Below, one piece after another: positions 1,210 to 25,060 of a stretch of DNA of 25,060 nt (the first letter of the stretch is position 1; each line of letters starts with the position of its first letter). The stretch is from an uncultured Fidelibacterota bacterium (GTDB lineage Bacteria; Fidelibacterota; Marinisomatia; Marinisomatales; TCS55). Both the position numbers and the translations under genes were made by a program. The stretch covers positions 1-25,060 of the forward strand of contig CALEPA010000116.1 in the NCBI GenBank assembly GCA_937910355.1. Direction: 5' to 3'. Below the pieces are notes generated by a model, which was not told the origin of the DNA, made no database searches, and worked only from the letters and a program-made list of their open reading frames with translations.

Positions 1210-1229
1210 ATCATATGATTCATTTAGTT

Positions 1230-4061: not shown

Positions 4062-4215
4062 GATAGCCTCGAGTTAAAGTTTGCGATGTCTGTAAATTAA
4101 AAGAAAAATAAGTGGATTTAACGATACTCAATGTGTTATCAGGAGGAATCACCCAAACAGTCTTGCAATCCAAAATAAACAGTAATTAGAATAAGAGATT
4201 TCTGCGCTAATTCAA

Positions 4216-5229: not shown

Positions 5230-5248
5230 GTTTGTAGGTTTTAGAATG

Positions 5249-6439: not shown

Positions 6440-6535
6440 ATTTTTCTCTTATTTGCCAAAATTCAAAAAAATACAGCTCCGCCATTTAAGTCACATAAAT
6501 GTGATATAGAATTTATGAATTAAAAACAGTGTCTT

Positions 6536-11355: not shown

Positions 11356-11358
11356 ATG

Positions 11359-11925
11359 CTAACCACTTATTCTTGAGTACCAATACCATACTTGTATAAT
11401 AATTGCTATTTGGGAAATGACCTTTATTATAGTTTGCCATTTGTACCAGGTGTTTTGTTTTACCATAACAACATCCCCTGGCTTCAAAACAGGCAATGAA
11501 TTTGAATTATTATTATTAAGATAGCTTTTAAGATTAACACGCATTATATTTTTTTCATATGGGTTTTCTTTGTGATTAGATGCTGTTTGTGGTTTTGAAA
11601 ATGTGGGAACTTCTTTTCTTGTTAAAGTGATGTTCTTAAGATTTGCGAATGCAGTTGGGCCCCCCGCTCTTGAAATTAACTCTAAAACATTTGTTCCGTC
11701 TGGCACTAAATATTCTCCTGGACGGGCCACTTCTCCCCATACATGTACTTGGATCATGAGTCTTTCCCCGGGGCCAATTTGGTATTGATCTAGCTGAGAT
11801 TGCTTTTCCTGGGGATATGTATTACTGAATGATAGCATGAGAATGACTAAAAAAATGATGGAATCAATAGTTCTCCATTTTGTTTCTGAGGCTTGCCTGG
11901 TCAGTCCCAATCTCAAAAATCTCAT
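11359..11925 (-). CDS. wza: Polysaccharide export outer-membrane protein (Wza/KpsD family, short form)
   Basis: It has a signal peptide, then ...PGERLMIQVHVWGEVARPGEYLVPDGTNVLELISRAGGPT..., and ...LKPGDVVMV at the C-terminus, which match Poly_export plus an SLBB domain. Its stop is 3 bp from the wzc start. Confidence 0.75.
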   Translation of the reverse strand: MRFLRLGLTRQASETKWRTIDSIIFLVILMLSFSNTYPQEKQSQLDQYQIGPGERLMIQVHVWGEVARPGEYLVPDGTNVLELISRAGGPTAFANLKNITLTRKEVPTFSKPQTASNHKENPYEKNIMRVNLKSYLNNNNSNSLPVLKPGDVVMVKQNTWYKWQTIIKVISQIAIIIQVWYWYSRISG

Positions 11926-11944
11926 TTTTTATCTTTTCCTATCC

Positions 11945-12322
11945 TCAGTTTAAATTATTACCATTAAGAACAATTAAATCCTTTAGGAATTTGTACTGAT
12001 ACAAATCAATGGGCTTTAAAAGACGCAACAAAATTCCTTCCTCCATAATGCGTTTGCTTTTTTCAAAGTCATCTTTCTCAGCAATATAAATAATCGGAAT
12101 ACGAGGGCGACTGCGCCTAATTATTTGAATCAACTCTTCTCCGGATAGCCCTTCAAGGTATTGATCTACAATGAGAAAATCATAATCATTATCAAGTATT
12201 TCTAAAATCACCTTGTGACCATGTCGGATAGTTTCAATTCTTAGGCTCTCTTTCTCGAAATATTTGACAATGTCAATTTCTAATTGCCGATCACACGTTG
12301 CAAGTAAAATTGATTTGGTCAT
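11945..12322 (-). CDS. Stand-alone CheY-like receiver (REC) domain protein, probably atypical or degenerate
   Basis: At 125 aa it has the (beta/alpha)5 receiver length. It conserves the phospho-acceptor-like Asp (FLIVDQ) and the Lys (LLKP). The N-terminal acidic pair reads LLATCD rather than the usual DD, and the Thr/Ser position is not obvious. It is the first gene of the polysaccharide operon. Confidence 0.5.
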   Translation of the reverse strand: MTKSILLATCDRQLEIDIVKYFEKESLRIETIRHGHKVILEILDNDYDFLIVDQYLEGLSGEELIQIIRRSRPRIPIIYIAEKDDFEKSKRIMEEGILLRLLKPIDLYQYKFLKDLIVLNGNNLN

Positions 12323-12369
12323 TTTAAACCTTTTATACGGTAAGTATTAGGCCTTTTAGTCGTCATAAG

Positions 12370-12384
12370 TCAATTTCCATGCCA
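12370..12384 (-). promoter_or_regulatory. Candidate sigma54 (-24/-12) promoter for the polysaccharide operon
   Basis: The minus strand reads TGGCATG-gaaa-TTGA against the consensus TGGCACG-N4-TTGCW. The GG-to-G spacing is correct and the site lies about 50 bp upstream of the REC gene start codon. The -12 position has A instead of the near-invariant C, so this is tentative. Confidence 0.25.
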
Positions 12385-12510
12385 GACGTTATTGCTTTCG
12401 TAACATATTGATAATTAAAGTAATTAATTTAATCGGCTTTTGGGAATGAAAGGGAAATTGTAACGAAGATGAAACTTTTTGGAATCTTGCGGTCTTTTGT
12501 GTGGATATAA

Positions 12511-12530
12511 ATGTAACAATTATGTTACAT
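12511..12530. promoter_or_regulatory. Perfect 8-4-8 inverted repeat ATGTAACA-atta-TGTTACAT, a candidate dimeric transcription-factor or enhancer site
   Basis: The palindrome was read directly from the sequence. It lies about 140 bp upstream of the candidate -24/-12 element and about 190 bp upstream of the operon start codon. A further TGTAAC half-site is at 12559-12564. Confidence 0.35.
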
Positions 12531-13190
12531 TTGAAACATTTGCTTAACAAGTGATGCTTGTAACTGGAGGCATTGGAAAAGATTGTTTCAATCGGAGAAG
12601 AATAATATTTAATACCATCCAGTTTTACAAATCGTGACTAAAGATTAAAATGCAGAAATCAACCTATTAAAACAGCGATTTTGAAGTAGTCGTTATTGCC
12701 AGTTTTTTTGCACCCTACATCTCATTTGAATTCAGATCAGGTTATAGGAAATCAGTTTAACGGCCAGGTGCAGGGTTATCTTGTTCAACTCGATGCTTGA
12801 CAGGTCCGACAATCCGAGGAAATTTTCTTTGTCAAACCAGAATTCAACCTCATCGATTTGAATATGTTTCGATGGCCTCTTCCCCGGTTTTGCCATCATC
12901 ATTGGTGAGGCAGCCGTAAAGTGTCCGTACTCTGTCCGCAATCTCATCTACCATAATGAGTCGTACAGCTTCGCAATAATGGCAGATTTTGGTTTTGACG
13001 GAGGTCACTCCCAATGTGGCTGTTAACCGCCGAAATGACTCCAACGGGATTTTGTCTATTATTAGAATATTCTATCGATAGCTTCTTAATAGATTTCAGG
13101 GGTAATAAATCCCGCTTCAAAATCGCTGTAAATGTAATACAATTCTGGTATTGACATTCCGGGATAAATAAGGTGTTGTTATCTTCCGGG

Positions 13191-13210
13191 AGACTAAGAG
13201 AGTCTTTTTA
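13191..13210 (+). terminator. Short hairpin followed by a T-run (AGACT-aagag-AGTCT-TTTTT), intrinsic-terminator-like, reading on the plus strand
   Basis: It is visible in the sequence. The stem is only 5 bp. There is a perfect TTGACA about 40 bp upstream (13151-13156) but no convincing -10 element. There is no annotated plus-strand gene here. Confidence 0.15.
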
Positions 13211-13256
13211 ATTCTAACAATCGGACGCTTTATTTACGGATGGGATTTCGTAAAAT

Positions 13257-14603
13257 TCATTTTACATTTACGCCCACCTCATACTTTTTCATCCGGTACA
13301 GGAGCACATGCCTGGGAATCCCCAGAAATTCTGCGGCTCTGGTCTTGTTCCCATGGGATTTCTGCAGTGCGTTTTCGATGGCTTGTTTTTCAATTTCAGG
13401 GAGTGTCTCTCGGGGAACAGCAGAAAAAGCGCGCGTCCCTTTACCGGTCCGCACCTCCTGTGCCAATAAATTTGAACTAATCCTTTGATCCGGACTGAGT
13501 ACAATTACGCGCTCAATCACATTTTCCAGTTCCCGCACATTTCCGGGCCAATCGTACGCTTCCAGAAAGGTCAATACGTCCGGATCTATTTTATATTTCA
13601 CTCCGTTGCCGTGTTTCTGGATGAAGTGATGGACGAGCGGCACAATGTCCTCCCGTCTCTCCCGCAACGGCGGTATTTCAATTGGGAGCACGCGCAGACG
13701 ATAGTACAAATCCTCACGAAATGAGCCCTCAGCGACCATTTGGTCCAGATTTTTATTGGTCGCCGCCACAATACGCACATCCACAGAAATGGGCCTGTTT
13801 TCTCCAACCCGTTCAATCTCCCGCTCCTGCAGCACGCGAAGCAGTTTGGCCTGCAAATCAACCTTCAAATCCCCAATCTCATCCAAAAACAACGTCCCGC
13901 CATTTGCCATTTCAAATTTTCCCTGCCGGTCCTTCATCGCTCCCGTAAACGCGCCTTTCACATGCCCGAATAATTCACTTTCTATTAATTGCTCCGGGAT
14001 AGACGGGCAATTCACCGTCACAAAAGGACCGTTTTTTCGGGGACTATTCACATGAATGGCTCGCGCAAGCAGCTCTTTTCCCGTACCGCTTTCGCCGAAA
14101 ATAAACACCGTGGAGTCACTGAGGGCGACACGAGTCGCCATTTGAATCAGCGTCTCCATCACCGGACTTCTTCCCACCAGACGTTCAAATCCGAATTTTG
14201 TGGAAACCTCCATTTTTAACCGGCGATTTTCCTGCCTGAGCTGCCTGAATTGAAGCGCTTTCTCGATGACAAACCGCATGGCTTCCTTTCCAAAAGGTTT
14301 GATCAGGTAATCATCCGCCCCGATTTTTGAAGCTTCCACGGCGCCGTCCACAGAACCATATGCCGTAATAATTATAAAAATAATATTTTTATCAATTTTT
14401 CGAACTTCCCGCAGAACTTCCATGCCGGTCATTCCCGGCATATTTATGTCTGATAAAATCACCTCATGGTCACCGGATTTAAACTTTCGCAGTCCTTCCT
14501 CACCGGAAAGAGCGATTTCCACCCGAAATCCCATTTGTTTGAGTTGGTGGGCAATCACACGACAAAGGCTTTCGTCATCATCGATAATTAAAATTCGAGT
14601 CAT
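13257..14603 (-). CDS. Sigma54-dependent response regulator (NtrC/Fis family bacterial enhancer-binding protein: REC + AAA+ + Fis-type HTH)
   Basis: The REC domain has DDDES and the phospho-acceptor ILSDINMPGM. The AAA+ domain has Walker A GESGTGKE, the sigma54-contact GAFTGA loop and Walker B LFLDEIGDL. The C-terminus has a Fis-type HTH (TRAAEFLGIPRHVLLYRMKKY). No histidine kinase gene is adjacent. Confidence 0.9.
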   Translation of the reverse strand: MTRILIIDDDESLCRVIAHQLKQMGFRVEIALSGEEGLRKFKSGDHEVILSDINMPGMTGMEVLREVRKIDKNIIFIIITAYGSVDGAVEASKIGADDYLIKPFGKEAMRFVIEKALQFRQLRQENRRLKMEVSTKFGFERLVGRSPVMETLIQMATRVALSDSTVFIFGESGTGKELLARAIHVNSPRKNGPFVTVNCPSIPEQLIESELFGHVKGAFTGAMKDRQGKFEMANGGTLFLDEIGDLKVDLQAKLLRVLQEREIERVGENRPISVDVRIVAATNKNLDQMVAEGSFREDLYYRLRVLPIEIPPLRERREDIVPLVHHFIQKHGNGVKYKIDPDVLTFLEAYDWPGNVRELENVIERVIVLSPDQRISSNLLAQEVRTGKGTRAFSAVPRETLPEIEKQAIENALQKSHGNKTRAAEFLGIPRHVLLYRMKKYEVGVNVK

Positions 14604-14710
14604 TTTTTCTTCCTCTGATTTTTAACCATATTAACAAAATTACACCTTACGGGGTGTGCTAAATTAAATTTGTTTTTCATTCCTAAATTCGTGCCAGCGG
14701 TACAACGTTT

Positions 14711-17700
14711 TTACCCGCTGTTTCCGCTGGTACGCGCCATTTTTAAAAAATAAGAGAGTAAGATTCTCTGCTGCTCCTGCGTGAGCGCTTCTTCATCCAA
14801 TTTTAAAATTTTCTCCATATCGCGAAGTGCCAGCAGCACCTCTTCGGGAATGTCCTTCATCGTTTCCGGAAGGTAGAGCAAAAACTGAACTGCCGTGAGC
14901 AGAAACTGCCGCATGCTGTCGTCCACAATATTGCGCAGCATGTCATTAATCTGGGTTGCCAGCCGGGTTACGCGCCCCCGGGAAACGCCGCTGCCGCGCA
15001 ATTGAAATGCGGCTTCACGCGTGAACAGCGATTTAACCGCCTTTGCCAGCTCGATGAAACTTCTCACCTGTTCGGAAATAGGCTTCTCAAGCATCTCCCA
15101 CATCTTTTTCCTGCTCTCACCAATAATACGCCGTTTGTCAAATTCTTCCTGAAATGCCCTGCGCCACTTTTCAGACAGCCGATTCGCAGGAAAAGCGGCA
15201 TCCGCTTCCCAGTTGAAAATATCCCGCTGTAAAAGGACTGCCAAATCAGGACGTAGGTACGGAAGCAGTTCATCGATTTTTTTTCGGCAGGGAATTTGCC
15301 CTTTTGTTAAAACGCCGCTTTTGCGCAGCAGCTCTTCCTGAAACAGAGGGATAAAATCTTTTAAAATCGATTGTTCTTCCTTCAAAGCTTTTAGTGCTGA
15401 ATTACCCGGAGGAAACGCATCTTCGATTCGTTTTAAAAAAATCAGATCCGGATCGTGATATAAACGCAGTGTGTTTAAAATATCGCGAACCGGCAGGTGC
15501 GGTAAAATATGCAGCCGGAATTGCTCTGTCCGCTTCGCACCCTCCATTTCCAGAAATTGATACAAAGACAAGAACAAACCTGTCGTAAATTGGTTTACTC
15601 CCAGCAAAAATGTCTGCGCCTTGTTATGTCCGATTGCCCGAAGCATGGTGCCGTGTGTGGCCAGGGGCAGTGTATTAGACAGGCGTTCCAGAATTTCACG
15701 GCTCCTGTCCAGGACCGGCTCTCTGCTGGGACGCACGGTCGGACGATCCCGCAGGGGCAAAAGTGTGCGGGACAGAAAATAAGACACCACATGGATGCCG
15801 GTCATGTCTTCGGGCCGGCCATAAACAATCTGCGTAAAATTGGATTTAACATAATCCAAAAATTCCACGAATATTTCATCATCTTCACGGCGAACCACAG
15901 AGCTCAGCTTTTGCCAGACGGCCGGATCACTCTCGGGAAGCTGCGAAGCTTTTACAAAGACGCGGTTCCAGTAGTCAACCTGTTTGGTACGGATGTTGTG
16001 AAATACATCGGCCAGCTCTCCCGCGGGGAGGTTTCGCAGCCGTTCCATCACATTGGACTGGAATGTACGGAAATCACTGTGACTCAAAATGCCCATCAAT
16101 GGAGAACGCGCTCGCCGAAAGGAACGCAATTCCAGGGCATCCATTTTTGATTGAAACGCTTCGTTTGCAAACACTTCATCCCGGAACACCGGACTTCCGC
16201 CGGTGGGATCGTAGTACCCCCCCTGACGCTGCGGCGATTCCCCTGATCCGAATTTGATCCGAATTTTGCCCAACAAGTCTTTCTTCCACATCCAGCGATT
16301 AAGCAGATCGCGGGCATCCTGATACAATGAATACGCTTTAAGCTGTCCCACCTGCTGGCTGAGATCCGAACCGGCAATGAAAAATTCACCCATAATCTCA
16401 CAGAATCGATCTTGCGGCCGCTGCCTTAATTTTCGGCTTTTTTCGGCATATTCCCAGATTTCATCCAAAAATTCAGGAATTTTCTGAATGGCCTCCAACT
16501 CCTCAAAGAGCGGCACAATTCGAATATCCGGTAAATTGAGCTCAGGATTTTTGTGTAACACCCGTTCCTTTTCTTCACAAAGTTTCCGGTAAAGTGTCAA
16601 AATGGCATGCGGATTGCCGGCCATGCTGACCTGAATAGCCAGCACCAATCCCTCGTACCCGTACAAACTTCCCAGAACATTTAATTCAACAAGATTATAA
16701 ACCGTAGTGTTAACCGTAAATTGATCTTTATCTAAAATGATTTTTTGGTGAATTCTGGGCGTCAGGTAAAACCGTTTTAAATAATTTTTGTAGAAGCTCA
16801 TAAAGAAAAGCCATTTTTCAGATTGCAGTTTTTCCCGATTGCGAAGCGTCACGTCTTTCGCAATCCGGATAAGCGTCTGATTGATCTCAAACAACCGCCT
16901 CATTTCAGACGAACGCTGCCGGCGGTATTGCTGCATCCGGCGTTCATTCCGGTCGTTATGTTTCCAGAGTGTTTTCAGCGGATCGCGCAGAAGCCTCAAT
17001 TTTCGTAAAAAACGCTTCAATCTTCCGATGGCATATTCCAGCGGAATCGTTTTTCGGTATTTTTCTTCCAGACGGCTGGTTAACTGAGTGATTTTTTGCA
17101 GAATTTTTCGGAAATTTTCGATCTGTTTCTCAATGGATCCAATCGCCTGCAAGGCACGTTCTTCATCCTGTGTTAATAATTGTTCATTTTGAAAGAGTTT
17201 AATCTGCAGCGCCAGCGCCCGAATATTGGCAATTAAAGGGCCTGAGATCAACGTGTGCCCTTGACCGCTGGGCCGGGTGCTGCCGTCCCAATCACCCCAG
17301 AACGACAGGGCGATGTGTTCACTTTCACCGGTAAAAATCTCGCCATAATTTTCTGCAAGGTGCAGCGCTTCAAAATCGCATACAACTTCCTCAGCTTCCA
17401 TCTGAGAAGAGATCGGCACATTTTCTCCCACGAATTCGTACACCAATTCCCGAAAGAGTTTTGAAACGGGAACAGATTCATATATTTCAGGAAGAACGCT
17501 GTTTTTTGCCATCTGTATGAAAAGCTGCTCCACACGAATCGAGTACATCTGCGTCGGATGAACCGTCCGGTCAAACAGGCGCTTCGTAAATTCGTCTCGT
17601 CGACTTTCAAGATCTTCGCCGTGCAGTTCCTGAAGAAACTTCCGGAACAGGGTTTCCCTGAAAACAGGATGTTTCTGTTTTAAACGAACCGCTTCCTTTA

Positions 17701-20359
17701 ATATCAACAAGTCCTGCATCTTATTTTCAAGAAACTGCCAACGCCGGGGCAGAAAATAGCTTAAGAAATCATCCAACACATTCGCTTGTTTCAATTCATC
17801 ATTTGTCCGGCGGGGAAGTGTTTGATAAAACCTCTTCTCCGCAAGTTTTTGGACAGTTTCATATAATTGAACTGTTTTTTGACGGAAAATATCCGACGGC
17901 TTTTGAGTGGAAAAAGTCCTGACCGCGTCTTTTAATAAATCTGTTCGAGGCAGGCGATGGTAATAATAGTTTTCGGCCTGTTTTCTAATCTGTTCGGTTA
18001 ATTCTTCCATCAGGCGCCGAATTTTTAGGGGAATTTCCTTTATCTCCAATTCACCCCCCAGGGTCAAACGGAAAGTCCGATTCGCCAGGTTAAAGCCCTC
18101 CACCGTACGGGAAAAATTAGTCATCGGAATAAGCCCGATTCCCTGATGCGCCAGTTGAAAGGCCAGCTTTTCAATTTGAACCACAGCCGGCATTTTTTGA
18201 ACCGCCAATTGCGGATACATGGCCCCCTGCGGCGGCAAAAAACGTATCTTGTAAGGATTGATTTCATCCGGCAAAGCCTCAAAAGCCTCCTGAATCGCAC
18301 AGGACCGCTGCCACAAAATCCAATCCCGCATCCGCCAAAAAAAGGACACTTTTTCCTGCCCCCTGCGATAAAAAAGGGTGCTCATGAGAATGGCCATTAA
18401 ATTGGGTCGAATATGGGACAGCCTCGCCTGAAATTTTTGGCGTGAGGCCGGATCCGGAATTTCGCAAACGGCCAATCTTGCACCCGCCTTGCAATCGGTT
18501 TTAGAAATCGACTGAAGCGTAATCAAATTCCGCAGGTGCGATTCCCGAAGCTTACCCTTTCCGAGAGCCGTCACGGCAATCTTTTTCAGGCTTCTGACCG
18601 GCACTTTTTCGGCCCTGATTTCCGGAGATTCGATCACCACGTCGGAATAAGACAAATCATCGATCACACGAATTCCACGCTGCAGACAATAAATCAGGAT
18701 CTTCTCCACATCTTGCTCGTCCCAGATTTTTCCGGTGGCATTCTGCGGATTATTCCAGATTACAATGCCTGTGTTTCGCCAATCGGAATCGGCCGCCAAC
18801 TTTTGTTCCAGCACCGAAATAAATCGATCCGGATTAATTTGTAAATCCTCGTTTAACGGCACGGCCGTCACATGCGGAAAAGCATCCCCGACTGTCCAGC
18901 TAAAATCGGGGATGATGACGTCCTGAATCCTCCACGCTTCTGCCATTGTGCTGAGCCCTGTCCGGGCCGACCCGCTGACGGGCACCAGGTGAGCCGGATC
19001 ATATTCCGGATGAAGATTTTGAAAGACCGATAAAAAGGAGCGCGTCAGGGTCTTCTGCCATTCTGAATCGTTTAGATTTGTAAAAAACTGAAGCAGTATT
19101 TCAGCCTGCTGTTTTCCTGAAAAAGGGTCCGGCAAGGCTCTGTTTAGCTGTTTCCCCCGAAAAAAGGAAACCGTTTTTTCAAGTCCCACCCCCAGGATTT
19201 CGGATGCTTTTGAAAAATGTCCAACCATTTGCTGAACATCCGCCGCAATTTCCTCAACAGTCTCCGCCGCGCCCCGCAAAACGCCGGGAAACCTTCCGGC
19301 CACTGCAAAATTTTCATACTCCGAAAAATCATCAGCCGGACTCGGGATGTCAAATCGGCGTTTATTTTGGCCCCGCCGGCTCAAATCGAATGTGCCGTCC
19401 TCATTCAGGAAGAAATCCAACAGTTTAATTTCACTTGCGGGAGGAGTCCCCATCTTCTTAAAATGCCTGCGGTTGAAGGCTTCGATGATTTCAGCCGGTC
19501 CCAGTAAAAAGGCAAGGCTGGAATATTTCAATTCGGGATGGATAATCTCCGGCGACAGAATTCGAACCATTCGCGTCTTCGTCCCGCGGACTGCGGAGAG
19601 ACTTTCGGAAGATGCCGTCTGATTCACTTCAATCAAAAAGATGCGTTTTTCCAAAAGCAATCGACTTAAACGTCTGCGATGACTTTCTTCAAATTTTTTG
19701 TGCAGCACCATGAATCCGACGGACTTTGAACCTTCGGACGCAAAAAAGCTTTCTAATTTCTGAATTTGAGAAGAACCCTCCGTGTCAAAAAATAACACTT
19801 CTCCCGGATATCTTTCATGCACTTCCGGGACTTCCGGAGCGCCCACAACCAGAAGCGTTTTTCGAGGGGTTTCTGCCTGCTCAAAAAACATCTGCAAAAG
19901 TATTTTTAGAGCCTGCCAACGCCCGCCGGAAGCCATAGCAAATTCCGGGGCGGTGTTATTTTTCGAGAAATTGTATCGTACCGGTGTTTTGGGGCTGTCA
20001 TTGAAAAAAACGGCCAGTTTACGAGTGAGTGTCCCCGGATTTTTAGGCGAGAATCCCCCGGCCGGCGCGTACGAGACGGATTTGCGGGATGTCTCGAACA
20101 GAAGCCGGAAATAGGATTGAATATCCGCATCGTCAAGCGATTGGAAAAACACTTTTTCATCGAAATCCCCGGCAGTCAGGCCGGAAAAATCGTCTCCCGA
20201 AAGAATCGCGTTGTACAGGCGATTCAACGCCTCATCCTGAACCGGATTGCCGATATGAAAATTCACTCGGCTTTTGGGATCCACGCCCGCTTCCGCCGTC
20301 AGTTGACTAATTTCTCCGACCAGCGGCGGAGAGCTTTTTTTAAGTTTCAAAAATGTCAT
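14711..20359 (-). CDS. Giant (1882 aa) multidomain protein: two tandem PLP-dependent aminotransferase-fold (class I/II) units fused to a C-terminal phosphoenolpyruvate-carboxylase (PEPC)-fold module with non-canonical catalytic motifs
   Basis: It is a single uninterrupted ORF. Aminotransferase unit A spans about aa 30-330 (NFHIGNPV, YAPAGG...LTRKLA, GGRWQALKILLQ...TLLVVGAPEVPEV) and has no Schiff-base Lys. Aminotransferase unit B spans about aa 400-800 (VSGSARTGL...DVIIPDFSW, IWNNPQNATG matching xNPxNPTG, IDDLSY, and SISKTDCKAGARLA matching SxSK..GxR). PEPC-like motifs run from about aa 900 to the C-terminus: DRTVHPTQ (cf. TAHPTE), SFWGDWDGSTRP (cf. WMGGDRDGNP), QVSMAG (cf. VISMA), IVPLFEELE (cf. 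APLFETLDDL), MGEFFIAGSD (cf. MIGYSDS), KFGSGESPQRQGG (cf. FHGRGGSIGRGG), LRAIGHNKAQTFLLG (cf. LRAIPWIFAWTQNRL), and a terminal ...SGNSG (cf. ...MRNTG). The ORF call is confident. The domain reading is from memory of family motifs only. Confidence 0.6.
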   Translation of the reverse strand: MTFLKLKKSSPPLVGEISQLTAEAGVDPKSRVNFHIGNPVQDEALNRLYNAILSGDDFSGLTAGDFDEKVFFQSLDDADIQSYFRLLFETSRKSVSYAPAGGFSPKNPGTLTRKLAVFFNDSPKTPVRYNFSKNNTAPEFAMASGGRWQALKILLQMFFEQAETPRKTLLVVGAPEVPEVHERYPGEVLFFDTEGSSQIQKLESFFASEGSKSVGFMVLHKKFEESHRRRLSRLLLEKRIFLIEVNQTASSESLSAVRGTKTRMVRILSPEIIHPELKYSSLAFLLGPAEIIEAFNRRHFKKMGTPPASEIKLLDFFLNEDGTFDLSRRGQNKRRFDIPSPADDFSEYENFAVAGRFPGVLRGAAETVEEIAADVQQMVGHFSKASEILGVGLEKTVSFFRGKQLNRALPDPFSGKQQAEILLQFFTNLNDSEWQKTLTRSFLSVFQNLHPEYDPAHLVPVSGSARTGLSTMAEAWRIQDVIIPDFSWTVGDAFPHVTAVPLNEDLQINPDRFISVLEQKLAADSDWRNTGIVIWNNPQNATGKIWDEQDVEKILIYCLQRGIRVIDDLSYSDVVIESPEIRAEKVPVRSLKKIAVTALGKGKLRESHLRNLITLQSISKTDCKAGARLAVCEIPDPASRQKFQARLSHIRPNLMAILMSTLFYRRGQEKVSFFWRMRDWILWQRSCAIQEAFEALPDEINPYKIRFLPPQGAMYPQLAVQKMPAVVQIEKLAFQLAHQGIGLIPMTNFSRTVEGFNLANRTFRLTLGGELEIKEIPLKIRRLMEELTEQIRKQAENYYYHRLPRTDLLKDAVRTFSTQKPSDIFRQKTVQLYETVQKLAEKRFYQTLPRRTNDELKQANVLDDFLSYFLPRRWQFLENKMQDLLILKEAVRLKQKHPVFRETLFRKFLQELHGEDLESRRDEFTKRLFDRTVHPTQMYSIRVEQLFIQMAKNSVLPEIYESVPVSKLFRELVYEFVGENVPISSQMEAEEVVCDFEALHLAENYGEIFTGESEHIALSFWGDWDGSTRPSGQGHTLISGPLIANIRALALQIKLFQNEQLLTQDEERALQAIGSIEKQIENFRKILQKITQLTSRLEEKYRKTIPLEYAIGRLKRFLRKLRLLRDPLKTLWKHNDRNERRMQQYRRQRSSEMRRLFEINQTLIRIAKDVTLRNREKLQSEKWLFFMSFYKNYLKRFYLTPRIHQKIILDKDQFTVNTTVYNLVELNVLGSLYGYEGLVLAIQVSMAGNPHAILTLYRKLCEEKERVLHKNPELNLPDIRIVPLFEELEAIQKIPEFLDEIWEYAEKSRKLRQRPQDRFCEIMGEFFIAGSDLSQQVGQLKAYSLYQDARDLLNRWMWKKDLLGKIRIKFGSGESPQRQGGYYDPTGGSPVFRDEVFANEAFQSKMDALELRSFRRARSPLMGILSHSDFRTFQSNVMERLRNLPAGELADVFHNIRTKQVDYWNRVFVKASQLPESDPAVWQKLSSVVRREDDEIFVEFLDYVKSNFTQIVYGRPEDMTGIHVVSYFLSRTLLPLRDRPTVRPSREPVLDRSREILERLSNTLPLATHGTMLRAIGHNKAQTFLLGVNQFTTGLFLSLYQFLEMEGAKRTEQFRLHILPHLPVRDILNTLRLYHDPDLIFLKRIEDAFPPGNSALKALKEEQSILKDFIPLFQEELLRKSGVLTKGQIPCRKKIDELLPYLRPDLAVLLQRDIFNWEADAAFPANRLSEKWRRAFQEEFDKRRIIGESRKKMWEMLEKPISEQVRSFIELAKAVKSLFTREAAFQLRGSGVSRGRVTRLATQINDMLRNIVDDSMRQFLLTAVQFLLYLPETMKDIPEEVLLALRDMEKILKLDEEALTQEQQRILLSYFLKMARTSGNSG

Positions 20360-20383
20360 TTAAGGGTGCATTTACGTCTATCA

Positions 20384-21346
20384 TTAATCTTTTTGGGCGG
20401 TTTTCGCCGGCTGAATAGCCTCTAACAACGATTGCAAAATCTTCGGCAATCCGTTATAAATTTCGGGGGAAAATGTGACAATCGTACGCGCGCTTTTTAA
20501 TTGCTGGCTGGCTTCTACCAATCGTGTGAGCTGCGGGGTTAGCATAATAAGTTCAGGATGTTTGCTGAGCAATTCGACTTCCTCTTTTTCCAATTCCAGC
20601 GACAGGCGTTTTTTCTCCGTCTCTTTTTCAAGCAGCTTCCGCTCTAATTCAGCCGCTTTTAATTCCTCTATTTCTTTCAATTTGAGATGCTCCATCTCCA
20701 TTTGGTGCTTGAGATGAGCAATTTCATCATCAGCTTTCAACTTCAATTTCTCAGTGGCAATTCGAGACTGCTGATTTGCTTTTTCCGTGGCCTCTTGAAT
20801 GTGGGCTTCTTCCTGCTGCCGGATGGCATCGGCGATTTTCTTGTCCGCGGCTTCCGCTTCGGAAACAACCACAGATGTCACGGTAACCCCAAAATTGTGC
20901 GCCAATTCCCCGAGATGTTCTCTCAGCAATTGGGCTAATTTCTCACGAGAGACCTGCGTAATTTCCAGTGTTTCCACCAATTCGCCCACCAGACCCTGAA
21001 CGGTGCCCGACAATTCTTCTGCCACTTTGTCCACGGCTTCCGAGGTCCATCCTCCGATACGCACCAGATTCTCCGCACGATGCGGATCAGGATAAAATGA
21101 GACGGAAAGTTTAATCACAACACCGATTTTGCCCTGTGCCTGTGTTTTAACTTCGGTTGAAATCGTTTTCATTGTGGCCGGCAGCGCCAACACCGATTTT
21201 GAAACGTACCATCGCTTCAGATAGGGTTGAATTTTTCCGTGTTTTTCAATCAGCAGCAATTGATCGGGACGGCGAACTTTAAAGGAAACCACAACAAGGA
21301 TTACCAATAAGACAATAAAAGCGATTAAAATTAGCCACAAAACCAT
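20384..21346 (-). CDS. SPFH/band-7 (flotillin/prohibitin-like) membrane protein with a C-terminal coiled coil
   Basis: It has an N-terminal TM helix (VLWLILIAFIVLLVILVVV) and an SPFH-like core (...ISTEVKTQAQ...VVIKLSVSF...). The C-terminus is a long Glu/Lys/Leu-rich coiled coil. The ORF table starts it at a TTG at 21421. An in-frame ATG (MVLWLIL...) at about 21346 is preceded 6 nt upstream by a GGAGGA Shine-Dalgarno and is the likelier start. The displayed sequence and the ORF table disagree by one base there, so the coordinate is uncertain by 1 nt. The stop is 24 bp before the giant gene start, which suggests co-transcription. Confidence 0.7.
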   Translation of the reverse strand: MVLWLILIAFIVLLVILVVVSFKVRRPDQLLLIEKHGKIQPYLKRWYVSKSVLALPATMKTISTEVKTQAQGKIGVVIKLSVSFYPDPHRAENLVRIGGWTSEAVDKVAEELSGTVQGLVGELVETLEITQVSREKLAQLLREHLGELAHNFGVTVTSVVVSEAEAADKKIADAIRQQEEAHIQEATEKANQQSRIATEKLKLKADDEIAHLKHQMEMEHLKLKEIEELKAAELERKLLEKETEKKRLSLELEKEEVELLSKHPELIMLTPQLTRLVEASQQLKSARTIVTFSPEIYNGLPKILQSLLEAIQPAKTAQKD

Positions 21347-21542
21347 TATAAATCCTCCAAATTGATATGGGGCTGAAGAAAAATATTTGTTAAATATACA
21401 CTCTTCAGCTTCATTTTGCAAGAAGAAAAGTTTTTAGTGAAAAAAACTTTTGCCCGAAACACATTGATTTTACGGGTAATGCAATCAATGGCCGAAAAAA
21501 AACTTGAAACAAACAAAATGTTTTAATACTATAAATCATATT

Positions 21543-21565
21543 TTTAGGAATGCCTAAATTTAGGG
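21543..21565. promoter_or_regulatory. DtxR/IdeR-type operator (TTTAGG-aatg-CCTAAA, plus a third direct half-site TTTAGGG)
   Basis: The palindrome core TTAGG-N4-CCTAA matches the core of the DtxR box consensus TTAGGTTAGCCTAACCTAA. It ends 18 bp upstream of the DtxR-family gene start codon and overlaps the likely promoter. Confidence 0.5.
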
Positions 21566-21575
21566 TTTTTGCGTA

Positions 21576-22250
21576 ATGAAAAACGAAGCCATCGAAGATT
21601 ATCTAAAAACCATGTTTCAACTTGAAACCGAGCACGGCAAAGTCTCAACCACGGCTTTAGCCAAACGATTGGAAATTGCGCCGGCCTCTGCCACCGGCAT
21701 GATAAAAAAATTAACGGGATTGGGGTTTCTGACCTACAAACCTTACGGCGGTGTGACGTTAACCTGGAAAGGAAAAAAAGCGGCTCTTGAAGTGATCCGG
21801 CATCACCGCTTGATCGAAAGCTTCCTCTTTAACACATTGAAACTCCCCTGGGACAGAATTCATCAGGAGGCGGAAAAATTAGAGCATGTGATTTCGGAAG
21901 ATTTGGAAGAAAGAATCGACCAATTTCTGGGTTCTCCCAAAACAGACCCCCACGGGGCTCCGATTCCAACCAAAAACGGAAAGGTGGACTTCAAAGAAAA
22001 CACTCTTTTGTCTGACCTAAAAGCCGGAGATTCATGCACCATTATTGAGGTGAGCGATCAGGACGCCGAATTGCTGCGGTATCTTGGAAACAGAAATCTT
22101 TTCCCCGGGACAAAATTAACAGTGCTTTCCGTGGAACCCTTTGACGGCCCATTAACGATTCATACCGGAGAAATGACCTCTATTCTGGGCCGAAAAGCGG
22201 CGAGCCGGATTTTTGTTCAAATTGAAAAACGTGAAAATAAAGCTGAGTGA
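21576..22250 (+). CDS. DtxR/MntR-family metal-dependent transcriptional repressor with a C-terminal FeoA/SH3-like domain
   Basis: It has an N-terminal winged HTH (STTALAKRLEIAPASATGMIKKL), a metal-binding/dimerisation region (HHRLIESFL...), and a C-terminal FeoA-like domain (GDSCTIIEVSDQDAELLRYLGNRNLFPGTKLTVLSVEP). The transporter gene starts 10 bp after its stop. Confidence 0.85.
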   Translation: MKNEAIEDYLKTMFQLETEHGKVSTTALAKRLEIAPASATGMIKKLTGLGFLTYKPYGGVTLTWKGKKAALEVIRHHRLIESFLFNTLKLPWDRIHQEAEKLEHVISEDLEERIDQFLGSPKTDPHGAPIPTKNGKVDFKENTLLSDLKAGDSCTIIEVSDQDAELLRYLGNRNLFPGTKLTVLSVEPFDGPLTIHTGEMTSILGRKAASRIFVQIEKRENKAE

Positions 22251-22259
22251 AGGATTAAA

Positions 22260-23543
22260 GTGGGTATGCCTAAACAGAATCGATCTGCAAGATTACGTGG
22301 CCGTATTAGGTCCAGAGCGCGCAAGGAACGCCGTAACCTGCTTTATTTCTTAGGGGTAATCGGGCCGGGTCTGGTTGTGATGTTTGCCGATACCGATGCG
22401 GGGAGTGTGATCACCGCTGCACAGAGCGGTGCAGTGTGGGGGTACAAGCTGCTCCTACTGCAAATCCTGCTGATCCCTATTGTCTACATGGTGCAGGAGC
22501 TTGCCGTGCGACTGGGGCTGGTAACCGGCAAAGGACACGGAGAACTCATCCGTGAACACTTCGGCACAGGGTGGGCATGGCTTTCGGTCTCCACTCTGGT
22601 GGTTGCCTGCCTGGGAGCTTTGGTCACCGAATTTGCCGGAGTGGCCGGTGCCGGGTTGCTGTTTGGAATTCCCCCCTGGATAAGCGTAGGCATGGCAGTG
22701 CTGCTTCTTTGGTTTGTGGCCTGGACCGGTTCGTACCTCTCGGTCGAGCGTATTGCCATTCTGATCGGCAGCTTTGAATTGGTCTTCCTGCTGGTGGCCT
22801 GGTGGGCACGTCCCAGCCCAGCGGCTATGCTGGATGGCTTGACCAAGATCCCATGGCGCCAGCCCGGATATATGTACTTGGCTGTGGCCAACATCGGCGC
22901 GGTGATTATGCCCTGGATGGTATTCTACCATCAGTCTGCGATTGTTGATAAAGGACTGAAAGCTAAAGATTTACGGGCATCCCGCAGGGACACAGCTCTG
23001 GGTGCAATCATCACACAGCTTATCATGATAGCGATACTGGTGACGGTCGCCGCAACCATTGGCATATACCATCCCGGTGAATCCCTGGACACGGTACAAC
23101 AGATAGCAGACGCACTGACTCCATTCTTAGGTAAGACGGTCGGGACAATCCTGTTTGCTATGGGTATGGTCGGGGCGTCATTAGTGGCAGCAATTGTGGT
23201 CTCACTTGCGACTGCCTGGGGATTGGGTGAAGTGAGCGGTTACCAGCGGTCTCTCGAACACCAGCCTCGCAAGGCCCCGTGGTTCTATCTAATCTACACC
23301 GCTATGCTAATAATAGGAGGTTTTATAGTGCTTTCGGGGATGAACCTGGTCAACCTGAGTGTGGCCGTACAAGTCATGAACGCAGCGCTGCTGCCGATTG
23401 TGCTGGGTTTTCTCTACCTGCTGGCACTCAAGGCACTGCCAAAGCCATACCGCCTGCATGGGATCTACTCTGTGGTGGTAGGTGTGGTGGTGGCAATAAC
23501 AAGCCTTTTAGGGATATACGCCGCGTTCAGTTTAATTTTTTAG
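22260..23543 (+). CDS. mntH: NRAMP-family divalent metal (Mn2+/Fe2+) transporter, MntH-like
   Basis: It has GPGLVVMFADTDAGS...AGAVWGYKLL...VQELAVRLGLVTGKGHGE in TM1-2, and AVIMPWMVFYHQS (cf. MPHN.YLHS) in TM6. It is multi-TM at 427 aa. An AAGGA lies 5-6 nt upstream of the GTG/ATG start. Confidence 0.8.
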   Translation: MGMPKQNRSARLRGRIRSRARKERRNLLYFLGVIGPGLVVMFADTDAGSVITAAQSGAVWGYKLLLLQILLIPIVYMVQELAVRLGLVTGKGHGELIREHFGTGWAWLSVSTLVVACLGALVTEFAGVAGAGLLFGIPPWISVGMAVLLLWFVAWTGSYLSVERIAILIGSFELVFLLVAWWARPSPAAMLDGLTKIPWRQPGYMYLAVANIGAVIMPWMVFYHQSAIVDKGLKAKDLRASRRDTALGAIITQLIMIAILVTVAATIGIYHPGESLDTVQQIADALTPFLGKTVGTILFAMGMVGASLVAAIVVSLATAWGLGEVSGYQRSLEHQPRKAPWFYLIYTAMLIIGGFIVLSGMNLVNLSVAVQVMNAALLPIVLGFLYLLALKALPKPYRLHGIYSVVVGVVVAITSLLGIYAAFSLIF

Positions 23544-23584
23544 CGAAGCAATGATTGCAGAAGTAAAAACAAAATTAGTACGCT

Positions 23585-23651
23585 TCTTTCCCCTTTTTCC
23601 CGGGGTAAACCCAGGGGCTAAATAGAGCAAGAATTCTAAAGAATTCTGAAG
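23585..23651. repeat. Partial copy of the REP/BIME-like unit (CCCGGGGTAAACCCAGGGGCTAAA...GCAAGAATTCTAAAGAATTCTGAAG) upstream of the RAYT gene
   Basis: It matches the 5' half of the tandem units downstream of the transposase gene. Confidence 0.6.
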
Positions 23652-23705
23652 CGGGAAAAAGCGGTCCTTATGAATAAACTTTTTATATAATGAAAGGGGC
23701 GCAAT

Positions 23706-24140
23706 ATGCCGTATTGGCGGTTACAGTATCAAGCAGCCTGGGCTTGCAAAAATCGTGAGTGTCTTATTCTTCCAGTGTGGGAATTTGAATTATTTAAATA
23801 TTTACTGAGGAAAGGATCTCAATTGGGAGCAATCATGCACGCTGTAGGCGGAATTGAAAACCATGTTCACGTTGTCTTCTCCCTGCCGCCACAATATGCC
23901 GTGGCCGATTTCATTGGCAAATTAAAAGGAACCAGTTCACATTGGGTAAATCATTTTTTAAATGAAAATTCCCATTTCAAGTGGCAGATTGGCTATGGTG
24001 TATTTTCATTCGGGGACAGCGCTATGAATAATATTATTGCCTATACTCAAAACCAAAAAGAGCATCACAAAAATAACACGATTATCCCTGCTTTTGAAAA
24101 ATGGAATGAAGATAATGAAGAGACATCCGTCTCAAGATAA
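23706..24140 (+). CDS. IS200/IS605-family HUH tyrosine transposase homologue, most likely a REP-associated tyrosine transposase (RAYT)
   Basis: At 144 aa it has the HUH motif HVHVVFSLPP and a C-terminal catalytic Tyr in a Y-x-x-NQ-x-x-HH context (IAYTQNQKEHH). A TATATAAT -10-like box and a GAAAGGGG Shine-Dalgarno lie upstream. REP-like palindromic repeats sit on both sides. Confidence 0.8.
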   Translation: MPYWRLQYQAAWACKNRECLILPVWEFELFKYLLRKGSQLGAIMHAVGGIENHVHVVFSLPPQYAVADFIGKLKGTSSHWVNHFLNENSHFKWQIGYGVFSFGDSAMNNIIAYTQNQKEHHKNNTIIPAFEKWNEDNEETSVSR

Positions 24141-24164
24141 ATCCTGGGGCCAAAATCCAGGAAC

Positions 24165-25060
24165 CTTTTCTCTTCTCTTTGCCCCGGGGTAAACAGAGCA
24201 AGAATTCTGAAGCCCCAGGTCTCAGCATCCTTCAGGATGCTTCCGGTGCTTTGCCCGTGGGTTTACTCACGGGCGGAAGATTTCAAAATAATATAACCTT
24301 TCCCCTTTTCCCCGGGGTAAACCCCGGGGCTAAAAATTGCAAGAATTCTAAAGAATTCTGAAGCCCCCTGGTCTCAGCATCCTTCAGGATGCTTCCGGCT
24401 CTTTGCCCGTGGGTTTACTCACGGGCGGAAAGATTTCAAAATAATAAAAAACAAAAAAAGACAGTCCTTTTCCTTTTGCCCCCGGGGTAAACCCCAGGGC
24501 TAAAATATGGCAAGAATTCTAAAGAATTCTAAAAACCCGGTTCCCAGCATCCTTCAGGATGCTTCCTGCCCTTTGCCCGTGGGTTTACCACGGGAAGCAA
24601 GATTTCAAAATAATAAAAAACAAAATGGGTGCGCTCATTTCCCTTTCCCCCAGGGCTAAAAAATGGTAAGAATTCTAAAGAATTCTGAAGCCCCCGGGTC
24701 TCAGCATCCTTCAGGATGCTTCCGGCTCTTTGCCCGTGGGTTTACCCACGGGAAGGAAAGAATTCAGAATAATATCACTTTTCCCCGGGGTAAACCCCAG
24801 GGCTAAAAATTGCAAGAATTCTAAAGAATTCTGAATCCCCGGGTCTCAGCATCATTCATGATGCTTCCGGCCCTTTGCCCGTGGGTTTACCCACGGGAAG
24901 GAAAGAATTCAGAATAATATCACTTTTCCCCGGGGTAAACCCCAGGGCTAAAAAATGGTAAGAATTCTAAAGAATTCTGAAGCCCCGGGTCTCAGCATTC
25001 TTCATGATTCTTCCGGATCCTTGCTCGTCGGTCTACTTATGACAAGGAATGAATTTCGAA
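24165..25060. repeat. Tandem array of about 5.5 units of a ~145-185-bp composite palindromic element (REP/BIME-like), running to the window end
   Basis: Each unit holds, in order: (i) CCCCGGGG-taaa-CCCCRGGG; (ii) AGAATTCT-aa-AGAATTCT (two EcoRI-centred palindromes); (iii) AGCATCC-ttca-GGATGCT; (iv) CCCGTGGG-ttta-CYCACGGG; then an A-rich tail. Units start at about 24165, 24299, 24467, 24637, 24777 and 24924. Some units carry internal deletions. The last unit is degenerate. Confidence 0.85.

Follow-up and report, generated by a model that had tools for sequence, protein, structure and literature searches.

A divergent PEPC homolog fused to aminotransferase-type domains and paired with an SPFH gene: a probable new membrane-tethered enzyme

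The window, which is the whole 25,060-nucleotide stretch of DNA analyzed here, carries a giant open reading frame (ORF) in which aminotransferase-like domains precede a PEPC-like domain. This locus raises the question of whether such a gene is real and, if so, what a polypeptide with this composition might do beside a gene for a membrane scaffold. The ORF runs from an aminotransferase-like domain (AT1) through a linker, an aminotransferase domain (AT2), and a connector to the PEPC-like domain, as follows.

14711 to 20359, minus strand: whole ORF, 1882 aa plus stop
19355 to 20359, minus strand: AT1, aa 1-335, degenerate aminotransferase-like domain with an N-terminal segment and a PLP-type large domain
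19148 to 19354, minus strand: linker, aa 336-404, a low-confidence or disordered stretch and a long helix
17960 to 19147, minus strand: AT2, aa 405-800, class-I/II aminotransferase fold with a complete PLP site
14714 to 17782, minus strand: PEPC-superfamily domain, aa 860-1882, with a predicted eight-strand barrel

The 1882-aa gene encodes a genuine, widely conserved bacterial protein, in line with the confidence that the original prediction placed in the ORF. The genomes of 392 GTDB species contain relatives, and the full-length relatives, which come from Ignavibacteriota (including Melioribacter roseus), Calditrichota, KSB1, Chloroflexota, and Acidobacteriota, repeat the three-module arrangement, as had been anticipated. 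An assembly chimera is excluded because three independent contigs (25060, 12317, and 51191 nt) carry identical copies of the protein and because there are more than 120 full-length homologs (1835 to 1924 aa, 33 to 64% identity). It is negligibly likely that an error of assembly or annotation joined separate aminotransferase and PEPC-like genes into one long ORF: a GC discontinuity near 12.3 to 13.2 kb in the window suggests some contig heterogeneity but falls outside the ORF, and the artefact reading is refuted by the three contigs and by the best 80 loci retrieved among the relatives in the 392 species, most of which cover query residues 1 to 1882 in an unbroken frame.

The architecture was thought to be undescribed, and neither a family model nor a paper was found for it. 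Neither Pfam nor NCBIfam has a model for the family, no PDB sequence match describes the family, and a literature search returned no description of the large-protein family or of its pairing with an SPFH gene. A survey of prokaryotic SPFH families likewise does not mention the pairing (PMC2636767). A search of the window against Rfam and for tRNAs gave no matches. Public records label the protein "aminotransferase class I/II-fold PLP-dependent enzyme," a designation that hides more than half of it.

Two tandem aminotransferase folds had been proposed for the N-terminal portion; the second was borne out and the first only in part. AT2 matches PF00155 with 41.3 bits (cut-off 19.7; E 1.4e-10), PF00155 is present in all homologs, and the AT2 structure is fold-type I. 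The PLP-site motifs that this unit was said to keep are NNPxNATG (536-543), D567/D568, Y571, S619-K620, G626-x-R628, and R764, and K620 (codon 18500-18502), D567/D568, N540, Y571, and R628 are invariant and align to the matching motifs of PDB aminotransferases. AT2 shares the fold and every PLP-binding motif with class-I/II aminotransferases and C-S lyases (PF00155; LysN 2egy, YbdL 1u08, PatB, MalY, and kynurenine aminotransferases). Its nearest structures, at similar Z, are LysN, glutamine/kynurenine aminotransferases, ACC synthase, and C-S lyases. The AT2 aminotransferase unit looks live.

AT1 is short (about 335 aa) and has neither a C-terminal small domain nor a Schiff-base Lys. The loss of this Lys had been predicted from the sequence LSPEI, and no conserved Lys follows strand f of AT1 in the family either, where the consensus is RVLRxLTPxxF. 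None of nine members gave a Pfam match to AT1, nor did AT1 have a PDB sequence match. However, the AT1 profile aligns in register with the AT2 large domain by hhalign (P 0.008), and the order of its seven-strand beta/alpha elements in the AlphaFold secondary structure repeats that of AT2. This alignment and the predicted secondary structure give moderate support for a tentative reading of AT1 as a degenerate aminotransferase-like domain. Its invariant residues include HIGNP (35-39), Y97-x-P-x-GG, G145/G146, R228, E244, and R266.

It is plausible that AT1 and AT2 form a covalently fused pseudo-heterodimer. In AlphaFold, aa 1-830 fold as a single unit (pTM 0.84), and pLDDT drops under 50 in and beside the linker, in the segments 333-364 and 381-404. 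The homodimer partner of other aminotransferases appears to be replaced here by a linked, truncated, Lys-less paralogous domain. AT2 is without the N-terminal stretch of about 60 residues in which aminotransferases usually have their G38-type and Y70-type motifs, whereas AT1 appears to have such motifs. In AspAT, Tyr70 is the class-I aminotransferase Tyr that reaches the PLP phosphate of the partner subunit, and the Y97-x-P-x-GG of AT1 may occupy the place of this residue.

The C-terminal 1000 or so aa are a true, very divergent homolog of PEPC, with the motifs in PEPC order as originally predicted. The predicted structure has the PEPC fold, an eight-strand barrel with the PEPC helical shell, and a Foldseek search with this domain returned PEPC for 34 of the 34 top matches. 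The next-best structural neighbors are pyruvate kinase, HpcH/HpaI aldolases, citrate-lyase beta, and malyl-CoA lyase. In hhalign, the domain matched a profile of 43 PEPC sequences, whose diverse members came from a metagenome scan, with an E value of 1.1e-5 (probability, 81%); matches to an Enterobacterales-only PEPC profile (E 6e-4) and to E. coli Ppc alone (E 0.066) were weaker. The homology is visible only when structures are compared or profiles are aligned with profiles. Run directly on the C-terminal 1000 aa, HMMER gave no significant PEPC match in Pfam, in NCBIfam, or among PDB sequences, and PF00311 and PF14010 matched neither the window protein nor any of eight C-terminal slices of it. 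The archaeal-type NCBIfam model TIGR02751 scored 13.9 bits on the protein (E 0.018), compared with its cut-off of 146.

Closer sequence relatives exist outside the family. Standalone PEPC-like proteins of about 940 to 1040 aa (P0256, P0272, P0274, and P0276 to P0279) are the closest, with P0256 giving a C-terminal profile match of 3.8e-27 and scoring above the PF14010 gathering threshold. They share with the family the rewritten motifs FHPSQ, WxDxDGxxRP, VPLFE, FxAGSDxSKxIGQ, RxKLGTGExxFRQxG, RDRG, and ARAIS but have neither aminotransferase domains nor an SPFH neighbor, and they keep the equivalent of K546. These proteins are very rare (5 in 5.8 billion proteins).

The active-site residues other than H934 were mapped to E. 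coli PEPC numbering with the hhalign alignment to the 43-sequence PEPC profile (E 1.1e-5), and conservation was scored over 108 sequences with a cut-off of 97%.

E1286 (codon 16502-16504): E506, metal ligand
D1332 (codon 16364-16366): D543, metal ligand
R1378 (codon 16226-16228): R587, mobile-loop Arg
R1539 and R1543: R699 and R703
R1574 (codon 15638-15640): R713
H934 (codon 17558-17560): H138, with weaker support
Q1335: replaces K546
S1372: replaces R581
F1370: replaces H579 (Phe/Leu in the family)

The catalytic motifs had been described as rewritten, which is true of R581, K546, H579, and three Gly residues, but both metal ligands, R587, R699, R703, and R713 are kept; the six retained residues are each at least 97% conserved. 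The His of TAHPTE was also expected to be kept. H934 lies in an invariant TVHPTQ (932-937) directly after predicted strand 1, and the best local alignment of this segment is to ELVLTAHPTE (E 0.03). The counterpart of GYSDSxKDxG is IAGSDLSQQVG rather than the GEFFIAGSD first put forward, and therefore Asp543 is retained. The mobile loop reads FGSGESPQRQGG where PEPC has FHGRGGxxGRGG. Gly583, Gly586, and Gly588 are Glu, Gln, and Gln in this loop, and its Gly-rich character is lost. The Arg residues of the loop are not substituted throughout, as had been claimed, because the second Arg of GRGGxxGRGG persists as R1378. No alignment was obtained for the strand that bears Arg396 (DIRQES), for which R1202 and K1206 in TPRIHQK are candidate equivalents. 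A register of FWGDWDGSxRPS against the PEPC motif SWHTDEIRKLRPS gave a nonsignificant alignment (E 0.2) and was provisionally set aside because the predicted barrel strand 2 ends at LSFW, like FTSW-MGGDRDGNP of PEPC, in which we take strand 2 to end at FTSW before MGGDRDGNP.

The pattern of conservation argues against a decayed pseudo-enzyme; a regulatory pseudo-enzyme had been one of the earlier suggestions. Conserved positions are densest in the PEPC-like core (19%), followed by AT2 (13.6%), and make up 0% of the linkers. Of the residues at or near the replaced positions, Q1335, E1374, Q1377, and Q1379 are near-invariant, and S1372 and F1370 do not reach 97%. The PEPC-like domain is probably active because no other part of the protein is as well conserved and because the replaced positions mostly hold other conserved residues.

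Comparison with the known PEPC types sets this domain apart from both. It is about 140 aa longer than PF00311 PEPC (E. coli Ppc, 1jqn; Flaveria, 3zge), it is fused to about 860 aa of aminotransferase-type domains, and it is strictly linked to an SPFH gene. In addition to the missing PF00311 match and the replacement of R581, K546, and H579, the GRGGxxGRGG loop reads GSGExxQRQGG here, and a by-eye position count on the alignment found no conserved counterpart of R832 of the allosteric Asp site. Archaeal-type PEPC (PF14010/TIGR02751; Clostridium perfringens, 3odm), compared by size and profile score, is half the size, at 55 to 60 kDa (PMC8100219), and the protein does not pass PF14010.

The partner gene lies upstream of the large ORF.

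20384 to 21346, minus strand: SPFH/Band_7 membrane scaffold gene, 320 aa, ATG at 21346

This gene has a GGAGG 7 nt upstream of its ATG and ends 24 nt before the large ORF. The encoded protein consists of an N-terminal transmembrane helix, an SPFH domain, and a coiled coil, with the hydrophobic helix and the coiled coil evident from the sequence. It is divergent: Pfam Band_7 matches it with 25.2 bits (cut-off 23.6), several orthologs match weakly or not at all, and comparison with PDB and NCBIfam sequences and models gave no match. The orthologs are 35 to 63% identical, a range similar to that of the large protein (34 to 64%), and their alignment shows a highly conserved C-terminal motif, LTPQxxRLxEASQxLKxAxT.

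SPFH and bEBP genes had both been expected to recur as neighbors, which held only for the former. Of the 69 loci that could be tested, which span at least five phyla, all 69 have the SPFH gene immediately before the large gene and on the same strand, with a median gap of 77 nt, and the same holds for all eight annotated loci. In contrast, a bEBP gene is not a conserved neighbor in the annotated loci, and GG-N10-GC-like sites of the sigma-54 promoter type were no more common upstream of the SPFH gene than in shuffled sequence. Apart from the SPFH gene, the neighbors vary among loci. An IS200-family transposase gene is nearby in the window and in locus L008.

The large protein is probably a new membrane-tethered two-step enzyme because a one-site aminotransferase pair and a PEPC relative always follow an SPFH gene. 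The reading that we prefer, to which we give somewhat less than an even chance as a whole, is that the protein couples a reaction of PEP to a transamination while seated on an SPFH scaffold. The first gene of the conserved two-gene module would encode a single-pass SPFH membrane scaffold, and the second would encode a cytoplasmic multidomain enzyme of about 210 kDa, in which AT1 would pack on AT2 and the dimer that aminotransferases require would form within one chain, around a single PLP active site (K620). The PEPC-like barrel, with its putative divalent-metal ligands, mobile-loop Arg, PEP-phosphate Arg cluster, and more weakly supported His equivalent, would bind PEP with Mg2+ or Mn2+ and cleave the P-O bond to yield metal-bound enolpyruvate. 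Capture of the enolate would then produce a 2-oxo acid, in the simplest case oxaloacetate from CO2 or bicarbonate, and the PLP site of the same polypeptide would transaminate this oxo acid to an amino acid, in the simplest case aspartate. The passage from PEP through the oxo acid to the amino acid may be channeled, as the original prediction had speculated. An SPFH oligomer would hold the enzyme at the membrane, probably via the conserved SPFH C-terminal motif. In this scheme we infer the pseudo-dimer geometry, the activity of both sites, their substrates, the coupling between them, and the physical interaction with the SPFH protein. Counted against the scheme are the lack of a direct Pfam PEPC match, the replacement of R581, K546, and three Gly residues, the unplaced R396 equivalent, an AT1 fold supported by a P of about 0.01 and predicted secondary structure, an SPFH scaffold with no obvious role in PEP-to-aspartate metabolism, and the spread of the nearest AT2 structures over several activities.

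It is possible, though we consider it unlikely, that the barrel still uses PEP, or a 2-oxo or enol acid, together with a metal but does not carboxylate. The enolate might instead be protonated, which would make the barrel a PEP phosphatase, or it might attack an aldehyde or imine, in the manner of class-II pyruvate aldolases or NeuB/KdsA-type enzymes, or PLP-bound aminoacrylate from the neighboring domain. Alternatively, the barrel might act in reverse as an oxaloacetate decarboxylase after aspartate transamination. In plant PEPC, K546 is linked to bicarbonate affinity; with K546, R581, and the three loop Gly residues replaced, carboxylation may therefore be lost. The changes of R581 to Ser, K546 to Gln, H579 to Phe/Leu, and the Gly residues to Glu/Gln/Gln, combined with the near-invariant residues Q1335, E1374, Q1377, and Q1379, look like respecification and not drift. 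Furthermore, the next-best structural neighbors of the barrel carry out metal-enolate chemistry without CO2, and AT2 is as close to C-S lyases, ACC synthase, and kynurenine aminotransferases as to AspAT. However, mutagenesis of the E. coli enzyme reportedly showed H138 and R587 to be specifically needed for carboxylation (Terada and Izui 1991; Yano et al. 1995), and both of these residues appear to be retained and invariant. The variable gene neighbors, SPFH aside, point to no alternative substrate.

A bolder version, which we regard as somewhat less likely, is a third, so far unrecognized PEPC-superfamily lineage in which the respecified barrel passes PEP-derived enolpyruvate to a non-CO2 electrophile that the fused single-site PLP module either produces or uses up. 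The result would be a new way of forming C-C or C-N bonds that leads to an unusual amino or oxo acid, with the enzyme sitting on an SPFH ring or inside it. On this version, Ignavibacteriota, Calditrichota, Chloroflexota, and Acidobacteriota would possess an SPFH-organized metabolic nanodomain.

Less probable again is that one or both modules, although built like enzymes, sense ligands or act as scaffolds and do not catalyze a reaction; examples would be a GabR/MocR-like PLP-dependent amino acid sensor and/or a PEP-binding pseudo-PEPC that regulates or organizes an SPFH microdomain. Against this, the catalytic residues of AT2, all of them present, do not vary from phylum to phylum, nor do the metal, His, and Arg residues of the barrel; conservation peaks in the barrel core; and neither Pfam nor NCBIfam reveals a DNA-binding, transmembrane, or signaling output domain. 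An anti-phage defense or toxin-like system of a giant protein and its membrane partner might be suspected from the two-gene module and from the nearby transposase in the window and L008, but it is very improbable, with no PADLOC matches and with retrieved loci that lie among ordinary metabolic or other nonmobile genes; together with the very uniform length and 34 to 64% identity of the protein, such neighbors are what one expects of metabolic genes passed on vertically, and not of a defense island, which would be patchy and evolve fast.

The pairing with an SPFH gene has partial counterparts among known SPFH operons. In HflK/C-FtsH and stomatin-NfeD, a membrane-anchored SPFH protein likewise adjoins and is co-conserved with one partner, but that partner is a protease or NfeD, whereas here it is a giant soluble protein of metabolic enzyme type. 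In the module, a prokaryotic SPFH scaffold is paired with what would be a client of its own that resembles a metabolic enzyme, and the aminotransferase portion offers a natural example of an obligate dimer made into a covalent one-site pseudo-dimer, if the predicted packing is correct.

To our knowledge, PEPC has so far been treated as a single-reaction enzyme family. In review, it is divided into two sequence types within one such family (PMC8100219). The large-protein family and its rare standalone sister group extend the PEPC superfamily to a lineage in which the active site is partly respecified and the architecture is wholly new. Among the 392 species with the gene are the cultivated Melioribacter roseus and members of the genus Caldithrix, and the predictions are therefore directly testable.

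The large gene (14711..20359, minus strand) is a single unbroken open reading frame in the window, encoding 1882 amino acids. It is not an assembly artifact, because the identical protein was present on three separate contigs (25,060, 12,317, and 51,191 nt), word-indexed matching against 5.8 billion proteins yielded over 120 homologues of full length (1835 to 1924 aa, 33 to 64% identity), and 392 species carried relatives when GTDB was scanned at one genome per species. These results bear out the confidence originally placed in the reading frame. Most of the best 80 loci retrieved from the 392-species scan matched query residues 1 to 1882. Carriers, by record title, were Ignavibacteriota (Melioribacter, including M. 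roseus, and Stygiobacter), Calditrichota (Caldithrix), KSB1, Kryptoniota, Chloroflexota (Anaerolineae, Thermoflexales), Acidobacteriota (Bryobacterales, Solibacteraceae), and MAGs labelled Bacteroidota or Deferribacteres. Where the protein had any public name, it was aminotransferase.

Unit 2 of the protein (about aa 405 to 800) forms an ordinary class-I/II aminotransferase domain of fold-type I. PF00155 matched aa 504 to 766 (E value, 1.4e-10), and the family profile matched PDB aminotransferases, pairing NNPHNATG with NPGNPTG and IDDLSY with ADEVYQ and aligning the SxSK motif to the catalytic SVSK of alanine aminotransferase. Among 108 sequences, N536, P538, N540, G543, D567/D568, Y571, S619, K620, G626, R628, and R764 were at least 97% conserved. 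The Pfam match and these conserved motif residues, K620 included, support the original prediction that the second unit keeps its PLP motifs, and its PLP site appears to be competent.

Unit 1 (aa 1 to 335) is far more degenerate than unit 2. There was no Pfam match to it in any of nine members and no PDB sequence match. Its profile could be aligned, in register, to the unit 2 large domain (hhalign P, 0.008 to 0.01), with EIILASGG opposite VVSGSARTAL, FLxLG opposite NNPHNATG, and LFFIExN opposite VIDDLSY, and seven strands with interleaved helices were predicted in the same order in both units. The C-terminal small domain was missing. No conserved Lys followed strand f (LSPEI in the window, LTPxxF in the family consensus), as expected from the earlier claim that the first unit lacks the Schiff-base Lys. 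Two motifs of unit 1, HIGNP and Y97-x-P-x-GG, were invariant. N-terminal elements of the AspAT Gly38/Tyr70 type close the active site and reach the PLP phosphate of the partner subunit. Because unit 1 keeps both motifs and unit 2 is without the corresponding N-terminal residues (about 60), it is reasonable to infer, as originally proposed, a covalently fused pseudo-heterodimer that would have a single live site.

HMMER searches with the C-terminal 1000 aa found nothing beyond a sub-threshold match, at the PLFE region, to the archaeal-type phosphoenolpyruvate carboxylase (PEPC) model TIGR02751 (E, 0.018). Homology of this domain to PEPC was established by four independent lines of evidence, including Foldseek, a sequence bridge, and profile-profile comparison. 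In the Foldseek structure comparison, all 34 matches with E values of at most 1.3e-6 were PEPCs, the first being E. coli 1jqn (2.3e-10), and the next match had an E value of 0.046. The domain profile matched only 247 proteins among 1.84 billion representatives, and nearly all of the 150 listed were family members or fragments. The same search also found standalone sister proteins of about 940 to 1040 aa, one of which, P0256 (E, 3.8e-27), scored 32.8 bits with PF14010, above its Pfam gathering score of 25. A profile of the family plus the sister proteins aligned with a PEPC profile of 43 sequences from metagenomic loci over 273 columns (probability, 81%; E, 1.1e-5; aa 1235 to 1607 against E. 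coli 465 to 746). Restricted profile comparisons placed RLFDRTVHPTQ on ELVLTAHPTE (E, 0.03) and LFQxELLRR on LQAELLHR (E, 0.016). The order of PEPC motifs first read from the sequence is thus real.

Residues were mapped through the alignment to the 43-sequence profile (H138 through the restricted comparison), with a conservation cutoff of 97% among 108 sequences.

PEPC active-site residues (E. coli numbering) and their counterparts in the large protein
E506, PLFE, metal ligand: E1286, kept
D543, GYSD, metal ligand: D1332, kept
R587, second Arg of GRGGxxGRGG: R1378, kept
R699 and R703, GSRPAKR: R1539 and R1543, kept
R713, LRAIPW: R1574, kept
H138, TAHPTE: H934, kept, by the weaker restricted alignment (E, 0.03)
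K546, GYSDSxKDxG: Q1335, replaced
R581, first Arg of the loop: S1372, replaced
H579, loop: F1370, replaced
G583, G586, and G588, loop: E1374, Q1377, and Q1379, replaced

The description of the catalytic motifs as rewritten was overstated: it holds for K546, R581, H579, and the loop Gly residues but not for the metal ligands, R587, R699, R703, or R713. GYSDSxKDxG corresponds to IAGSDLSQQVG rather than to GEFFIAGSD, as had been proposed, and therefore the metal-ligand Asp is kept. The predicted barrel topology favors the original register of FWGDWDGSxRP on GGDRDGNP. The profile comparisons gave no placement for R396 (DIRQES). In the PEPC-type barrel the metal ligands and most phosphate-binding Arg residues appear intact, with the catalytic His more weakly mapped. 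Every kept residue was at least 97% conserved, as were the replacements Q1335, E1374, Q1377, and Q1379; S1372 and F1370 fell below the cutoff. Conserved positions were densest in the barrel core (aa 925 to 1600; 19%), followed by unit 2 (13.6%), unit 1 (8.7%), and the linkers (0%). Because the replaced positions are mostly near-invariant and the core has the highest density, the pattern fits a working, respecified PEPC-type site rather than a decaying pseudo-enzyme. Both the PLP site and the barrel are under strong purifying selection.

A gene for an SPFH/Band_7 protein of about 320 aa (20384..21346, minus strand, in the window) lay immediately upstream on the same strand in each of the eight loci that had gene calls and, among GTDB loci whose upstream sequence was long enough, in 69 of 69; its recurrence had been put forward for checking. 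The gap was 24 nt in the window (median, 77 nt). This partner gene is obligate. The mechanical open reading frame (20384-21421) begins at TTG 21421, but the true start is most likely ATG 21346, giving 320 aa, because of GGAGG 7 nt upstream and the orthologue alignment. In the window protein, a transmembrane helix at the N terminus is joined by an SPFH domain and a coiled coil, and the C terminus carries a motif of striking conservation; the identity range of the SPFH protein (35 to 63%) resembles that of the large protein. The most conserved part was not the SPFH domain but a C-terminal segment, P-ELxxLTPQxxRLxEASQxLKxAxT, which is therefore a candidate for docking the large protein:
about 20444-20557, minus strand: conserved segment, aa 264 to 301 (orthologue alignment columns about 265 to 300)

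Tentatively, the large protein may couple a PEP-using step to transamination, a possibility that we rate somewhat short of probable. The barrel would bind PEP and a divalent metal to yield enolpyruvate, the enolate would be captured to give a 2-oxo acid, and the PLP site of the same chain would interconvert the 2-oxo acid and an amino acid, with an SPFH oligomer holding the enzyme at the membrane. In the simplest version, which is carboxylating, PEP and HCO3- would give oxaloacetate and then aspartate, and an unstable intermediate would be shielded. Mutagenesis of E. coli PEPC reportedly showed that H138 and R587 are needed specifically for carboxylation, and the equivalents of both appear to be kept. 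This apparent retention speaks against a non-carboxylating use of the enolate, which is unlikely but a serious rival because R581, the Gly-rich loop, and K546, a residue linked to bicarbonate, have been lost. The conservation pattern makes a role as sensor or scaffold still less likely, and quite improbable.

Apart from each other, the SPFH gene and the large gene had no conserved neighbor. The downstream sigma-54 enhancer-binding-type regulator (bEBP), whose recurrence had likewise been put forward for checking, was not a conserved neighbor. Such genes lay within about 5 kb of the gene pair in three of nine annotated loci, with differing positions and sensor domains:
13257-14603, window: bEBP
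15089-16555, relative's locus L004: bEBP
1360-2868, relative's locus L008: bEBP
Sigma-54-type promoter matches upstream of the pair were at background level only, and the proximity is probably coincidence. PADLOC found no defense-system match.

Divergent from the SPFH gene were a DtxR/MntR-type metalloregulator and an Nramp (MntH-type) transporter (21576-23543, plus strand), and in a 56% identical locus (L006, 4727-6604) an Nramp-Usp gene lay directly beside the SPFH gene. PEPC-type enzymes require Mn2+ or Mg2+, and thus a manganese-supply link is conceivable; more distant loci lacked this neighborhood. IS200/IS605-family Y1 transposases lay about 2.3 kb from the pair in the window (23706-24140, plus strand) and, in L008 (11667-12119), immediately next to the 3' end of the large gene. 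In two Ignavibacteriae loci (L002 and L003, 15574-16637) short genes directly downstream of the large gene, of 195 to 220 and 80 aa with glutamate-synthase (PF01645) and GXGXG matches, look like fragments.

GC content stepped sharply from about 27 to 37% (1-12322) to about 42 to 53% (13257-25060). The low-GC part, which lies outside the large gene, is a locus for exporting and making polysaccharide (DUF354, T9SS-sorted protein, NAD epimerase, sugar transferase, TonB-dependent-receptor-like, Wzz/GNVR tyrosine-kinase-like, and SLBB/Wza-like proteins, and an orphan receiver domain) and could be a glycan island gained by horizontal transfer. At the boundary, flanked by the orphan response regulator and the bEBP, 934 nt (12323-13256) had no open reading frame of at least 100 aa; no Rfam or tRNA match was found there or elsewhere in the window.

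The standalone sister family (P0256, P0272, P0274, and P0276 to P0279) is rare, with five proteins among 5.8 billion, in Logan assemblies only. It shares the unusual motifs of the large protein but keeps the K546 equivalent. Two genes were placed in loci:
1851-4850, L011: P0279
8001-10931, L012: P0276
Neither had an SPFH or aminotransferase neighbor; sister genes were surrounded by ordinary genes of core metabolism and nucleic-acid processing (GAPDH, transketolase, RecJ, homoserine dehydrogenase). The sister protein could be the functional PEPC of its organisms or another uncharacterized enzyme.

A review of the PEP-pyruvate-oxaloacetate node recognizes only bacterial/plant-type PEPCs, in three subgroups, and archaeal-type PEPCs (PMC8100219). 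Because the large protein falls below the thresholds of PF00311 and PF14010 and differs from PEPC in two motifs, the Gly-rich loop with R581 and K546, the family is filed as a new divergent lineage of the PEPC superfamily, not as PEPC proper. A survey of prokaryotic SPFH families mentions no aminotransferase or carboxylase partner (PMC2636767), and literature searches for the architecture found no description. The original finding holds up as real, and its structural claims are correct for the most part. Known folds are combined in a new architecture, the active site is partly respecified, and the SPFH-client pairing is new. In its predicted working mode the large protein resembles a PEPC-superfamily enzyme joined to an aminotransferase, and its function is testable in cultivated hosts.
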